Origin: Chitinophagaceae bacterium | GTDB lineage: Bacteria; Bacteroidota; Bacteroidia; Chitinophagales; Chitinophagaceae | Assembly (NCBI GenBank): GCA_035318845.1 | Contig: DATHDV010000213.1 | Location: 267-64,266, forward strand | Direction of reading: 5' to 3' | Length of the DNA: 64,000 nt | Shown: one piece after another, positions 41,335 through 49,652 of the stretch | Position numbering within the stretch: position 1 is the first letter of the stretch | How the letters are laid out: each line of letters opens with the position of its first letter | Program-made: the position numbers and the translations under genes | Notes under the pieces: model-generated | Seen by the model: only the letters and a program-made list of their open reading frames with translations | Database searches by the model: none | What the model was told of the DNA's origin: nothing

Positions 41335-42774
41335 TTACCCGGCAAATGAACCTTTAATTTCAAGCTCTCTTCCTGTCAAAGTATTATTCTTCACTCCCAT
41401 TATTAACCCTCTGCATTGAGAACTTCCACATTGGCATTGAAACGGCTCCATATTTTCATCAAGAAATTCAGCATAATCTAGTGTCAGCTCTTCGCCTTTA
41501 GGTATTTTTTTTAAAGCGATTTCATTGAGCCCGTCAAAAGTAGTATTGGGATCGCAACTGTGGTTTTGAGGAGCCCATTCGGATGGGTCGTCATCCCAAA
41601 GAATAAAAAGTTCTTCACTGACGGGATAGGCATAACGGCGGAAATGCAGTTTTTCATCCTCGTTCCAGTTCTTTTCAACAAATCGTTTGGTAATGACCCG
41701 CTGCGATTTGCCTTCGCCTTTAAAAATAATTTCTCCCTCTTTAATATCGCGGTTTGCATAGATACCATAACCCGCAATGGAGTTGCCCTTCATTGTATAG
41801 GGTTTCATTTTCCTTTTATGGCGGGCAATGCCTTCTGCTATTATATGTCGTAAAAAACCATCCTGACCGATAGCATCATATTTCAACACAAAATCCGCCG
41901 AACCTTCATAACCGTCTTTATAGAAGACAGAGCAAGTAAGGTTCATTTCCAGAAAATAAACTTCTCTTTTGTCGTTTACTCTGAAATCGAGGCGGCCATA
42001 TCCAACTGCATTTACTGCTTTAAACATTTTCTCTGCCGCCTGCCGAATTTTTTTATCCAACTCTTCATCTGTACATGGAAAATTACATTCCGGGTGCAAT
42101 TCTGAAGTTTTTAATGAATAGGTTTTAAACTCTTTCCCTTCGGGAAATAAATATTCCACCGGAAGAAAAACAGTACAACTATGACCGTCGGGATTGGCAG
42201 CAACAAGTGCCGTGAATTCTCTGCCGGCAATATATTCCTCCACCAGCAGTGGCCCATATTCCTGAATGATGCTTTTTACTTTGCTTATTAGCTCTCCTTT
42301 AGTATGCACCAGCGAATGTTCATCCACGCCAAGACTGTCGCCCGCATGTGCCGGCTTTACAAACAATGGAAATTTTAAACTCCTTACTGCTTCATCCAGG
42401 TCTTTCATTTCATTAACCAAAACAAATCCCGGGGTAGTTACGCCTTCGCAGTAAGCAATATATTTCATCAGCTCTTTGGGTACATCATATAACTTGGTGC
42501 CGGGGCCTGTAAAAGGGAGGCTAAGTGATTCCATGGAAAATGTAACATCTATACCCGGTATTTCCCACTCCGGGTATCCTTCGCAAAGGTTTACGAAAAT
42601 GTCATACCCTTCTTTACTAAGTTCTTTTAGCTGCCTGAATGTAGTGAGTTTGTTCAGAAATACATTATGCACCTCATGCTCTGGTATAAGCGGGGCCAGT
42701 TCCCTTGGAGGGTCCCAATTCTTATAATCAACACCAGTGGTGGAGTAGTCGGGTTGCAGAACACAAACTTTCAT
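41335..42774 (-). CDS. Ddl-like ATP-grasp ligase fused to a C-terminal SET + post-SET domain
   Basis: ATP-grasp LFVKPAHAGDSLGV, VEEYIAGREF, GYGRLDFR, LEMN; SET IAGYGIYA, QNHSCDPN, EELTLDY; post-SET CQCGSSQC. Confidence 0.88.
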   Translation of the reverse strand: MKVCVLQPDYSTTGVDYKNWDPPRELAPLIPEHEVHNVFLNKLTTFRQLKELSKEGYDIFVNLCEGYPEWEIPGIDVTFSMESLSLPFTGPGTKLYDVPKELMKYIAYCEGVTTPGFVLVNEMKDLDEAVRSLKFPLFVKPAHAGDSLGVDEHSLVHTKGELISKVKSIIQEYGPLLVEEYIAGREFTALVAANPDGHSCTVFLPVEYLFPEGKEFKTYSLKTSELHPECNFPCTDEELDKKIRQAAEKMFKAVNAVGYGRLDFRVNDKREVYFLEMNLTCSVFYKDGYEGSADFVLKYDAIGQDGFLRHIIAEGIARHKRKMKPYTMKGNSIAGYGIYANRDIKEGEIIFKGEGKSQRVITKRFVEKNWNEDEKLHFRRYAYPVSEELFILWDDDPSEWAPQNHSCDPNTTFDGLNEIALKKIPKGEELTLDYAEFLDENMEPFQCQCGSSQCRGLIMGVKNNTLTGRELEIKGSFAG

Positions 42775-42816
42775 GTCACACTAAGGTAATAACTAGTCAA
42801 ATATAAAAACGGATAT

Positions 42817-43977
42817 TTATTTAACAGTAATCGTCTTCCTGGTTTTTGAAGTCCTTGTCTTTTTAACTACGACCGGCTTGACAATGCTTCTTCTCAATGC
42901 ATCTTTCAATATCTCGGTAATGATCTCCGTAAAGGATACATTAGAGACTTTTAAAATAGCCCCGATAGATGTGTAGTTTTCGTCTTCGCTTAATCCGCAT
43001 TGAGCATTAACCTCCAGCATGTATAGTTTGCCGGTATGTGAATCCTGCCTTATATCAATCCGGGTATAACCTTTTCCGCTACAGGATATATAAGCGTCCA
43101 TACTCAACTTCTTCAGTGCGGGGATCAGGGATGGTTCAACCGGACCGTATTCATAAAAGTTTCCGTTCTCCGGCATCGGGGTTTCATCTTCATAGATCTC
43201 CCAAAGACGGTCGAAGGATAAAAATTTCTCTGCCTCCGGCAGTGATTCATGAAAATTTCTCTTTACCGGTTCATATACTATGCAATTATTGGGATCGTCA
43301 GCTGAGCCGGTAATAAATGTAGTGTATTCAGGACCCGTAATGAATTGTTCAACAAACAAACCATCAACCAATAAGTTCCAGCCATGATAGCCTTTGTATA
43401 TTTCTTCAACTCTTTTTGCCAGTTCTTCCTCGCTTTGAACAACATTTTTAACGGATACACCCATGCTGCCGCCGGAAACTGCCGGTTTAATAATTATCGG
43501 AGTCCCCACTCTTTTACAAATTCCTTTTGTTGAGCCTTTCTTATCGGTGATCACTCTCCAGTTAGCCGTAGATACCCCCGCTTTATCAAAAGCCTTCTTC
43601 ATAGGGATCTTGGAAGTGGTCGTATTGTAAAAATATGCGTCGGAGCCGGTATAGATCAATCCATATTTTTCCAATTCATGAATAACGGAGACCCCGGGAG
43701 TTCCATTCACTTCATCCCCATCACAGAGGTTTAATATTAATGGTGTTTTTCCATTGGAGCTAACAGCGATCGACCGGATAATTTCCTTATAATTATCCAT
43801 CGTGACCGGTTGCCATTTCCATTGGGTTTTTAATTCCTCAAAAACGCTGGTAAACTCCTGTATGCTTTGAGAAAAGTCATAGTAATGCTGAATATTGGGA
43901 TCATCTGACTCCAGGTGAGGGGCCAGCACCCAAATCGTATATGGCTTCAGCAATCGAATGGCTTCAGATGTTTTCAT
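42817..43977 (-). CDS. Ddl-like ATP-grasp ligase
   Basis: NLCDG, IIIKPAVSGGSMGV, VEQFITGPEY, GYTRIDIR, LEVNAQCG; basic C-terminal tail. Confidence 0.88.
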   Translation of the reverse strand: MKTSEAIRLLKPYTIWVLAPHLESDDPNIQHYYDFSQSIQEFTSVFEELKTQWKWQPVTMDNYKEIIRSIAVSSNGKTPLILNLCDGDEVNGTPGVSVIHELEKYGLIYTGSDAYFYNTTTSKIPMKKAFDKAGVSTANWRVITDKKGSTKGICKRVGTPIIIKPAVSGGSMGVSVKNVVQSEEELAKRVEEIYKGYHGWNLLVDGLFVEQFITGPEYTTFITGSADDPNNCIVYEPVKRNFHESLPEAEKFLSFDRLWEIYEDETPMPENGNFYEYGPVEPSLIPALKKLSMDAYISCSGKGYTRIDIRQDSHTGKLYMLEVNAQCGLSEDENYTSIGAILKVSNVSFTEIITEILKDALRRSIVKPVVVKKTRTSKTRKTITVK

Positions 43978-43981
43978 ACAC

Positions 43982-44491
43982 TCAGGCTACTTTCTTCCTG
44001 ACCGAACGTTTGGCCAGTTGGCTTTGAATAAAATCAGTAAAGCGATATTTTTCCTGTGCCTCTTTGGAGAGAAAAGCAGCTCCCCTGATTTCTCCCAAAC
44101 AATGAGAGCTTCCGCAATAACACCGGAATGACTGTGTCATTTTCCATTCGGTAGATGGATAAAAAAATGTCATTTCCTCTTCGCATTTCAGGGGCTTCAA
44201 TGCCACCAGGTTCATAGCCGTGGTGTCAAAGAACACATTGGGATCGCAACTGTGATTGATGTACTGCAAAAACACAGGGTCAAACGTAATGTGTTTACGA
44301 ATGCCTAACTGGATTGTCAGGTAAGTTGGTTCTGCAGAGATAGTGCCGGCAGAAAAATTGGCAATGATATCGCCGGGCTTATAAGAACGGAGAGAAAACA
44401 ATGCGTTTTGTCCGTTCGATAATTTTCTTCGCATTTCAGCAATTCCATGATTGCTTATCATGCGGTAAGCAGGGGTAGTTAGTGTTTCCAT
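43982..44491 (-). CDS. Stand-alone SET domain methyltransferase with post-SET
   Basis: QYINHSCDPN, EEMTFFY, CYCGSSHC. Confidence 0.9.
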   Translation of the reverse strand: METLTTPAYRMISNHGIAEMRRKLSNGQNALFSLRSYKPGDIIANFSAGTISAEPTYLTIQLGIRKHITFDPVFLQYINHSCDPNVFFDTTAMNLVALKPLKCEEEMTFFYPSTEWKMTQSFRCYCGSSHCLGEIRGAAFLSKEAQEKYRFTDFIQSQLAKRSVRKKVA

Positions 44492-44685
44492 AAAATGAGT
44501 TAGTAAGTAATTAACCGAAAAGATATAGATAAACTTTTATGTAACAAATTTTATAGCGTCAAATGTGAATAATTAATAACTAATGTGGAATATGAATGAT
44601 GTATGATCATCGTGTTTGATTATTCATTTCATCATCATAAAGTCTATTCATTGCTTCAATATCGATTTTAACAACTGATTCATTG

Positions 44686-44740: not shown

Positions 44741-45082
44741 ATGGTGCGAAAGATCGTTTCCATAATTTGTTCTTTATTAATTGGATTAGCTGAAATGAAG
44801 GCCCAGTGCGGTTCCGGTATCATCAGCTTTCCATACAACGAGGGATTTGAAACAAGCGATGGCGGATGGGTCTCCGGTGGCGCTGGTAATGATTGGGCAT
44901 GGGGTTCACCATCAAAACCAGTTATCTCAACAGCTGGCGGTGGAACAAAATGCTGGATCGTTGGTGGATTAACCGGCAGTTCTTATACTAATGCTGAAGC
45001 TTCATGGTTGCAAAGCCCTTGCTTTGATTTTACTTCTGTTCAAAGGGAATTAAGAATAGGAACGGTCATGTTAATCCGGTGA
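44741..45082 (+). pseudogene. Truncated secreted protein (N-terminus resembling large T9SS-cargo surface proteins)
   Basis: Signal peptide and FPYNEGFE..GGW..GG...DWAWG.P.K...W......Y...E.SWLQSPCFDF, then an abrupt unrelated 12-aa tail overlapping the convergent helicase stop. Confidence 0.6.
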
Positions 45083-48524: not shown

Positions 48525-48983
48525 ATGCTAACGACAAATCAAATCAAAGCGAAGTATGGCGAACCCGGGCCATCAAATCTGATCATGATAACTTTTCCCT
48601 ATCCGATGAAAATTGCCTGGGATTTAAAAAGCATCGCCACAAAAACCCAATGTCATAAACTGGTTGCGCCAAAATTTAAACTGGTTTTTGATGACTTGTT
48701 GGCAACATACGGGTTACCCGAACTACAGAGACTCGGAATTGATCTGTTTGGTGGTCTTTATAATTTCCGTAAACAACGGAATGGAAACGATTGGTCACGA
48801 CATGCGTGGGGAATTGCCATTGACCTTGATCCGGCGCGGAATGCCTTAAAACAGACTTCTAAAACGGCTCAGTTTGCCAAGCCCGAGTATAAGCCAATGA
48901 TTGATATTTTCTATAAACATGGATTCCTGGGATTGGGGCCAGAGAAGAACTATGACTGGATGCATTTCGAAATTGGATCTTAA
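48525..48983 (+). CDS. M15-family peptidoglycan metallopeptidase (endolysin-like)
   Basis: Zn motif SRHAWGIAID (SxHx6D) and DWMHFE; upstream GGLYNFR; no signal peptide. Confidence 0.85.
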   Translation: MLTTNQIKAKYGEPGPSNLIMITFPYPMKIAWDLKSIATKTQCHKLVAPKFKLVFDDLLATYGLPELQRLGIDLFGGLYNFRKQRNGNDWSRHAWGIAIDLDPARNALKQTSKTAQFAKPEYKPMIDIFYKHGFLGLGPEKNYDWMHFEIGS

Positions 48984-49061: not shown

Positions 49062-49652
49062 ATGCTGACTGCTGAACGTTTCTCATCACTCACCAATATT
49101 GTTATAGACAATTTTGAAGGCGGGTATTATCACCCGGATATGGCCAAAAAAATGAAACCAAGCGACCAGGCATTAATGGCTGCGTCCGGTGAAACGATGT
49201 TTGGGCTGGATAGAAAAGCCGGGGCGCAACTGGCTGTATATCCCGAATGGAAACAATTTTGGGATATGGTAGATGAGGCAAATGCCCGTACTAACTGGAA
49301 ACATTATAGCCTTGGCGGTGCGCTCAATGCTCCTCTAAAGGAACTGACCGGTAAAATAATGTACCAGTGGTTCAACCACCTTGCTGCAAAATACCTGGTT
49401 GGAGATAGCATTGATAAAATATCTGCCGATGACCGGTTGGTAATTCATTTCAGCTATGCAAGCTGGAACGGTGAAGGCTGGTTCAAGAAGTTTGCAGATG
49501 CCCTCAACGCAGCTAAGGGAACAAAAGAGCAAATTTTTCAGGAAGCTATCAAAGCAAGAACAGAGGCAATAAACAAATCCGGATCTCCAAACAAAGCAAT
49601 AAGACAGCAGGGAGTAAATATGATGACTCTGTTTGCCAAATTACACCTTTAA
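49062..49652 (+). CDS. Putative GH108-like lysozyme-fold protein
   Basis: FEGGYYHPD...SGETMFGLD resembles the EGGY...GxTxxGI motif; no signal peptide. Confidence 0.55.
   Translation: MLTAERFSSLTNIVIDNFEGGYYHPDMAKKMKPSDQALMAASGETMFGLDRKAGAQLAVYPEWKQFWDMVDEANARTNWKHYSLGGALNAPLKELTGKIMYQWFNHLAAKYLVGDSIDKISADDRLVIHFSYASWNGEGWFKKFADALNAAKGTKEQIFQEAIKARTEAINKSGSPNKAIRQQGVNMMTLFAKLHL

Follow-up and report, generated by a model that had tools for sequence, protein, structure and literature searches.

What is made by an operon in which two ligases resembling D-alanine-D-alanine ligase (Ddl) stand beside two SET methyltransferase domains? The question is raised by a stretch of 64,000 nucleotides from a soil Chitinophagaceae bacterium (assembly GCA_035318845.1, contig DATHDV010000213.1, positions 267 to 64,266 of the forward strand), hereafter the window, in which three consecutive genes, called A, B and C, encode a SET methyltransferase, an ATP-grasp ligase and a ligase-SET fusion. 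This cassette is genuine and intact, its genes are strongly co-inherited, and the literature examined offers no characterisation of it. On balance we lean towards the view that it would build, independently of ribosomes, a metabolite like a di- or tripeptide that is methylated and probably cationic; the identity of this product cannot be derived from the sequence.

A co-inherited cassette of ligases and SET domains

The operon itself consists of A, B and C alone, with the following features:

43982-44491, minus strand: gene A, SET/post-SET methyltransferase of 169 aa (open reading frame (ORF) call and Pfam SET)
42817-43977, minus strand: gene B, second Ddl-like ATP-grasp ligase, 386 aa (Pfam and NCBIfam)
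41335-42774, minus strand: gene C, ligase-SET fusion, 479 aa (Pfam Dala_Dala_lig_C and SET)
41800-42774, minus strand: ligase half of C, aa 1-325, a complete Ddl-type ATP-grasp fold (AlphaFold2 model, Foldseek)
41404-41787, minus strand: SET/post-SET half of C, aa ~330-457 (Pfam SET)
42820-42885, minus strand: Lys/Arg/Thr-rich C-terminal tail of B, about aa 365-386 (...VVVKKTRTSKTRKTITVK)

A first-pass annotation of the window had described three co-directional genes with short gaps and a convergent mnmG, and the ORF coordinates agree with it: A and B are separated by 4 nt, B and C by 42 nt, and the mnmG stop (41326) lies 8 nt from that of C. The two SET and two Ddl-like ATP-grasp domains of the same annotation all exceed their Pfam gathering scores, with 31.2 bits for SET (PF00856, class V) in A (cut-off 22.4), 57.5 bits for Dala_Dala_lig_C in B (cut-off 24), and 76 bits for Dala_Dala_lig_C together with 45.7 bits for SET (cut-off 22.4) in C. 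Every motif that it quoted was found in place. The SET domains have NHSCDPN at residue 79, EMTFFY at 106 and CYCGSSHC at 124 of A, and GYG at 335, NHSCDPN at 404, ELTLDY at 429 and CQCGSSQC at 447 of C; the ligase motifs are NLCDG at 83, K164, RIDIR at 306 and EVN at 322 (EVNAQCG) of B, and NLCEG at 62 and EMN at 276 (EMNLTCS) of C. Judged by these motifs, all four catalytic modules look intact.

That the three genes co-occur strongly is clear from 71 Chitinophagaceae species-representative genomes with enough upstream sequence, in which A-B-C are colinear in 64, six carry only B-C and one only C. Six of these exceptions were searched further (five of the six B-C-only genomes and the single C-only genome), and in five of them an A-type gene was located elsewhere in the genome (E ~1e-64 to 1e-81); at the one unlinked A locus inspected, the neighbours are housekeeping-like (ruvB-like and leuS-like, judged from their sequences). 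Of 301 genomes sampled from the phylum, 14 have the cassette, and these belong to six of 143 genera, a patchy distribution. Homologues of C number 3580 among 8000 scored candidates at E<=1e-3 and form 260 clusters (50%-identity level) at E<=1e-30, and 4238 homologues of B were obtained, those listed being 84-100% identical. These thousands of homologues, together with the conserved gene order, place the cassette far beyond chance. Its hosts are soil and freshwater bacteria; the sequence itself was found in soil and sediment DNA metagenomes only, and no RNA runs contain it.

The modules also occur joined to one another in several combinations. Single proteins with ligase, C-type SET and A-type SET were found repeatedly (P0126, P0132 and P0144; also L160, L163-167 and L174), a B-type ligase is fused to a C-type ligase in P0156, and all four modules are contained in one protein of 953 aa (P0142), while a protein of the green alga Mesostigma viride (P0137) carries four A-type SETs plus ligase and SET. 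Moreover, a second large clade, about 35-40% identical to the present C and taking in Pyrinomonadaceae (Acidobacteriota), has the ligase-SET fusion mostly alone, with unconserved neighbours that by eye are unrelated housekeeping genes (tdk-like and gcvT-like). A accompanies the fusion in some lineages, and B was seen only in loci of the Chitinophagaceae-type clade and, fused, in the metagenomic P0142 and P0156. Since the ligase-SET fusion usually stands alone in the second clade, it is the core and minimal unit, and its frequent solitary occurrence in other phyla implies that the minimal product probably needs only one ligation.

Two side observations concern the eukaryotic end of this distribution. 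In three metagenome contigs (L096, L097 and L126) the fusion gene appears to be in pieces separated by intron-like spacers of a few hundred bases, which suggests that these split copies are eukaryotic, in line with the Mesostigma homologue. A giant eukaryotic homologue of 6220 aa (P0241) was considered as a nonribosomal peptide synthetase (NRPS) or polyketide synthase; it is low-complexity and neither of the two.

The first-pass annotation knew of no characterised pathway with this architecture, and none was found in the literature, where nothing on a ligase-SET cassette came up, an earlier in-silico mention being possible. A 2026 paper on a thiohistidine-dipeptide ATP-grasp enzyme proved to be unrelated to the cassette.

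The ligases and SET domains beside Ddl and BurB

Are the two ligases simply further copies of Ddl? On the NCBIfam Ddl models B reaches 86.9 and 79 bits and C 86.3 and 84.4 bits, far below the curated cut-offs of 243 bits (NF002378) and 245.65 bits (TIGR01205), whereas a separate canonical ddl on another contig of the genome (C178; 328-347 aa) scores 337 bits against an equivalog cut-off of 310 and carries GGFSGE, HGTPGEDG, AKY and EVNTIPG...S. When B and C are aligned to this Ddl of their own genome, GGxSxE (E15) is missing from both, the Lys-Tyr of the Ddl omega loop is replaced by K-T in C and by R-L-W in B, and EMNLTCS (C) and EVNAQCG (B) stand in place of EVNTIPG, the EVNTxPG...S-L motif not being kept. 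The ATP-grasp core, on the other hand, is kept in B and C, respectively, as K164 and K140, the VEQFI and VEEYI hinges, R306-x-D308 and R261-x-D263, and E322-x-N324 and E276-x-N278, and the conserved ligase residues of C are K140, E179/E180, K222, R261, D263, R265, E276 and N278. Both ligases have in common features that are not those of Ddl, namely NLC[DE]G, an extra Arg (R-x-D-x-R) and a Cys in N-x-x-C. Neither ligase is a cell-wall Ddl; the first-pass annotation had already noted the replacement of EVNTxPG.

In its three-domain fold, the ATP/Mg ligands, the acyl-phosphate-stabilising Arg and the lid loop the family resembles Ddl/VanA (PF07478, NF002378, TIGR01205). The differences are that the present ligases score ~87 bits against cut-offs of at least 243, that their substrate motifs are replaced by family-specific ones, that one of them is fused to a SET domain, and that they stand in no mur context in a genome with a true ddl elsewhere. 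The AlphaFold2 model of C (43-row alignment) has a predicted local distance difference test score (pLDDT) of 88.9 and a predicted template-modelling score (pTM) of 0.85, and in Foldseek its ligase half matches whole Ddl structures with TM(target) of 0.75-0.79 across ~330 columns; the equivalent of the Ddl lid loop (~residues 205-232) is modelled at lower confidence. The three-domain fold of Ddl encloses small substrates, and by analogy the ligase of C may enclose small substrates too. Pfam matches the ligases to Ddl_C, CPSase, GARS and generic ATP-grasp models; no RimK or TTL model is among the hits. As a separate observation, two (near-)invariant cysteines run through the ligase family (C85 and C327 in B; C64 and C281 in C), the first within NLC[DE]G and the second at the Pro position of the Ddl EVNTxPG; they may serve in metal binding, redox chemistry or the binding of substrate.

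A fold and top family matches of the Ddl/Van type could still point to the cell wall, with the ligases making an alternative D-Ala-D-X-type dipeptide for peptidoglycan precursors that would then be methylated. This role we regard as very improbable, because the D-Ala binding motifs are replaced, the canonical ddl elsewhere in the genome passes its equivalog cut-off, and the operon has no linked mur, van or racemase genes. The earlier statement that no mur or cell-wall genes lie nearby holds for the mur genes and has to be qualified for the rest, since two putative lysin-like ORFs are present 4-5 kb away, outside the conserved cassette. Putative lysin- or muramidase-like genes are likewise found a few kb off in some related loci, in favour of a cell-wall role, but the helicase recurs alongside, so that these neighbours look like shared synteny and not like an independent association. 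To our knowledge, SET methylation of peptidoglycan precursors has no precedent.

The SET domain of A leads in another direction. Its closest PDB match by sequence is BurB (9l4t/9l4v; E 2e-12, the runner-up being ASH1L at 3e-4), and an AlphaFold2 model of A (pLDDT 91.7) again has BurB as the closest fold (Foldseek E 1.4e-9, TM 0.62-0.67, with MLL4, SETD2 and ASH1L at ~1e-5). BurB of Burkholderia thailandensis is a SET protein of 172 aa that S-methylates free L-methionine, which it contacts via main-chain atoms deep in a pocket that shuts over the methionine when S-adenosylmethionine (SAM) binds (PMC12542666). It is proof that a free amino acid can be the substrate of a SET enzyme, and its main-chain mode of binding means that sequence is no predictor of specificity. 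Like A, BurB and its Streptomyces mobaraensis homologue MSMT, also an L-methionine S-methyltransferase, are small (~170 aa) bacterial SET/post-SET proteins (PMC12542666). A and BurB are 26-27% identical and both carry a Y-x-S-T-E...F-x-C-x-C-G segment; A has the canonical INHSCDPN where BurB has LLHSCVPN. By these comparisons A is related to BurB without being its orthologue.

The second SET domain, in C, matches the SET domains of MLL, ASH1L and SETD2 in the PDB, and also BurB (1.3e-7). In a maximum-likelihood SET tree the A-type and C-type domains form two deep, well-supported clades, and BurB is a lone long branch between them whose placement is unsure owing to its length. Since the A-type and C-type SETs fall in separate clades, the operon carries two different methyltransferases. 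Both families keep their SAM-binding and catalytic motifs without variation (NHSCxPN, the Tyr of ExTxxY, and CxCx4C of the post-SET region), and the invariants of the A family include P55, Q61, H67, N79, H80, C82, P84, E106, Y111 and E115, as well as W116, M118, F122, C124, C126 and C131. At the N-terminal SET motif A has G-Q-N against the canonical GxG, and C has GYG. The conservation of these motifs predicts that both A and C bind SAM and transfer methyl groups, in keeping with the SET assignment of the first-pass annotation.

The nearness of BurB in both sequence and structure, together with the shared Y-x-S-T-E...F-x-C-x-C-G segment, raises the possibility that A is itself a methionine S-methyltransferase of the BurB/MSMT type, which would lead to an amide derived from S-methylmethionine or feed a pathway like that of dimethylsulfoniopropionate. 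This sulfonium variant seems improbable to us, given the low identity, the position of BurB outside the A clade and the difference between INHSCDPN and LLHSCVPN. The partners of BurB are enzymes of the BurI/BurD/BurE type (decarboxylase, aminotransferase and dehydrogenase), whereas A sits with ATP-grasp ligases, and no S-methylmethionine decarboxylase, aminotransferase or dehydrogenase of these types is present in the operon. The soil and freshwater hosts also speak against the variant, and the main-chain methionine contacts of BurB leave the specificity of A unpredictable from its sequence.

A small metabolite or a protein tag

What, then, would the four modules make together? In the pathway that we favour, the substrates, which we infer to be small molecules, would enter at the ligase half of C, where a common amino acid, or a small acid like it, would have its carboxylate activated as an acyl-phosphate and joined to an amine, producing a dipeptide-like amide. 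The fused SET domain would then transfer a methyl group from SAM to an N or S nucleophile on the substrate or the product. In Chitinophagaceae, B would act as an accessory enzyme for a second ligation and A, as a BurB-like SET of the other clade, for a second and different methylation, so that a di- or tripeptide-like compound would result in the end, methylated and probably with a permanent charge. Its handling would fall, in several lineages, to a dedicated ABC (ATP-binding cassette) exporter.

This pathway is supported by ligases that keep the ATP/Mg and acyl-phosphate residues yet are without the substrate motifs of Ddl, and by the co-inheritance, the fusion proteins and the often solitary fusion gene. 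Additional weight comes from BurB as the nearest structure, the full Ddl fold with its lid loop, the lack of a conserved target or precursor gene, and the exporters found as neighbours in three lineages. Directly 3' of C, a 300-aa ABC_membrane_3 (transmembrane-only) gene is present in 24 Chitinophagaceae loci (including L006, L008, L010 and L023); a full ABC exporter follows A-C in another family of the same phylum (f21), and a homologous full exporter adjoins the cassette in seven metagenome loci, in several orientations. The conserved neighbours of the cassette include no precursor peptide and no target protein, and neither a protease nor a carrier protein nor an enzyme of precursor supply.

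Several points weigh against such a pathway. The overwhelming majority of SET enzymes methylate lysines of proteins, and both A and C keep the canonical motifs (NHSCxPN, the Tyr and post-SET). BurB, as a lone long branch in the SET tree, is no orthologue of A. Beside the operon the present genome has no exporter, and a gene of the ABC_membrane_3 type (c9) is absent from it altogether; homologues of the full ABC exporter are present, all of them on other contigs. Finally, the Lys-rich tail of B (...V-K) and the end of A (...ARKKVA) could be peptide substrates or docking arms.

Two of these points, the canonical SET motifs and the tails, lend themselves to a system for modifying proteins or peptides, in which the ATP-grasp enzymes would add amino acids to a protein, at a C-terminal carboxylate or a side chain in the manner of RimK, TTL or LysX, and the SET domains would methylate target lysines; the target could be a housekeeping protein (ribosomal or nucleoid), or A and B could themselves provide it in their basic tails. 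SET domains canonically methylate protein lysine, and a missing precursor-supply gene suits a macromolecular target equally well, yet the ligases are Ddl-type in sequence and, for the modelled C, in the full fold, and not of the RimK/TTL/LysX type, the SET enzyme of the nearest structure has a free amino acid as its substrate, the neighbourhood holds no conserved candidate for a target gene, and the exporter neighbours are ill-suited to an intracellular tag. A pairing of SET-like and ATP-grasp (TTL) domains is found in the eukaryotic TTLL12, the sole described protein with both that was found; it has the reversed domain order, a TTL-type ATP-grasp in a protein context and no architectural homology to the present family, and its published abstract reports neither histone methylation nor tubulin tyrosine ligase activity for it (PMC3520985).

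The tails deserve closer attention in this respect, the K/R/T-rich tail of B with its conserved ...V-K and the H3-like ...ARKKVA end of A being in favour of a protein target. The B tail comprises 22 residues (C-terminal end ...KKTRTSKTRKTITVK) of variable sequence, and across the C-termini of ~85 orthologues the terminus [TSA]-[VI]-x-[VA]-K is kept in most of those at least ~70% identical; the tail is missing in most of the distant orthologues (at most ~67% identity), which still have the cassette and thus speak against tagging. Similar basic tails are present in 54 of the 3963 ORFs of the genome. In A, the C-terminal basic helix ends in ...AKRSVRKKVA (as a pattern, ...FTDFIQQQLAKRxARKKVA); the KVA end is clade-specific, and a helix with a basic end also follows the post-SET motif in the SETs of the solitary-fusion clade. 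Comparable basic helices are found across the family, a point against tagging. The AlphaFold2 model places the tail of A as the end of this C-terminal helix, not docked in the active site, and a role as pseudo-substrate was rejected. The tail of B may be a docking arm, a substrate or a localisation signal. In sum, the tails keep the idea of a protein substrate or docking arm alive and are not universal to the system, and a protein-modification role is, in our estimation, unlikely.

The first-pass annotation had offered a metabolite and a protein tag as alternatives: its four-module system is real and is not a Ddl or cell-wall one, and between the two alternatives the evidence leans towards the metabolite. 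Its labels of a 'tripeptide' and a 'betainised' product are guesses. A bolder form of the metabolite reading, which we advance only tentatively, has the SET domains as the tailoring half of a widespread undescribed pathway, independent of ribosomes and NRPSs, in soil and freshwater Bacteroidota, Acidobacteriota and some algae. The Ddl-type ligases would build a di- or tripeptide-like amide from ordinary amino acids, the two SET clades would methylate it repeatedly, and the permanently charged product (a quaternary ammonium or sulfonium compound) would belong to a new class of secreted metabolites or compatible solutes. Much less likely is that the Lys-terminated tail of the Chitinophagaceae B serves as a covalent swinging arm ferrying an intermediate among the four active sites.

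Known pathways offer partial parallels to a methylated dipeptide-like product. In the NAGGN osmolyte pathway, Ngg is a fusion of GNAT and ATP-grasp domains making N-acetylglutaminylglutamine, and like the present fusion it sets a tailoring domain on an ATP-grasp ligase to obtain a capped dipeptide without ribosome or NRPS; compared by description, it differs in that the cap is an acetyl group added by GNAT, not a methyl group added by SET, and in that its ATP-grasp belongs to another subfamily. Similarly, carnosine synthase and carnosine N-methyltransferase, which lead to anserine, combine dipeptide ligation by an ATP-grasp enzyme with subsequent SAM methylation, but these enzymes, again compared by description, are animal and unfused, and the methyltransferase is not a SET protein.

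If the metabolite reading is true, thousands of abundant soil bacterial genomes would encode a novel methylated metabolite, made by a pairing of Ddl-type ligase and SET methyltransferase that has no described biochemical example. The BurB precedent would be widened, bacterial SET enzymes being broadly small-molecule enzymes, and the database labels 'D-alanine-D-alanine ligase' and 'protein-lysine N-methyltransferase' would need correcting. The three-gene cassette, or the lone fusion, would be a compact target, easy to express and assay. If instead the protein-tag reading is true, the cassette would be a new bacterial post-translational modification system.

Upstream block and neighbouring genes

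The neighbours of the operon are mnmG, a helicase and a gene remnant. Three further features of the window touch on it:

44492-44576, minus strand: conserved block 5' of A, recognised by nucleotide conservation, a putative promoter/leader
44741-45082, plus strand: gene remnant ORF of 113 aa, similar to the N-terminus of a ~490-aa protein of relatives
48525-48983 and 49062-49652: the two putative lysin-like ORFs, ~4-5 kb off, past the helicase and ssb

How is the cassette expressed? The 85 nt 5' of A are 73-86% identical to those of ~50 related loci whose A proteins are ~61-81% identical, and within them the box TTAATTATTCACATTT (16 nt; 44576-44561) is nearly invariant. It is followed by a -7-like element of the Bacteroidota type (TAAAATTTG, 44553-44545), and a leader that is also conserved (...ATTACTTACTAAC...) precedes the ATG of A; the alignment of the block (A5) has an invariant run of 14 nt. 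From this pattern we read the block as a probable dedicated promoter or operator, together with a leader. A riboswitch or other ligand-sensing leader RNA was set aside in view of the absence of any Rfam family at threshold (only sub-threshold snoRNA noise was obtained) and of any pairs or consensus RNA structure in RNAalifold. A regulon defined by the shared box was likewise rejected, as the 16-mer is unique in the genome, with its 14-nt core found once more, on contig C262, with no gene downstream.

Further small candidates around the operon were examined. A 27-aa upstream ORF, the sole small one, was discarded as a precursor peptide, being conserved no further than the closest relative. With respect to graspetides and other peptides that are made on the ribosome and modified after translation, there is no precursor peptide or protease at the operon, and the tail of B is without Asp or Glu. 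The anti-phage defence models of PADLOC gave no match for A, B or C.

The remnant ORF between the helicase and A records a loss. Over the first ~100 residues it shares 68% identity with the N-terminus of a ~490-aa protein with a signal-peptide-like N-terminus, which in many relatives is encoded at full length between the helicase and gene A; most of this gene is deleted in the present genome, leaving the 113-aa remnant. A different arrangement is found in one sub-clade (L088-L094), in which B-C is followed on the 3' side by an 89-aa acylphosphatase gene, then by two large putative metallopeptidase ORFs (HExxH) and a putative muramidase-like gene. It is curious to find an acylphosphatase next to acyl-phosphate-forming enzymes, but the arrangement is limited to one genus-level group.

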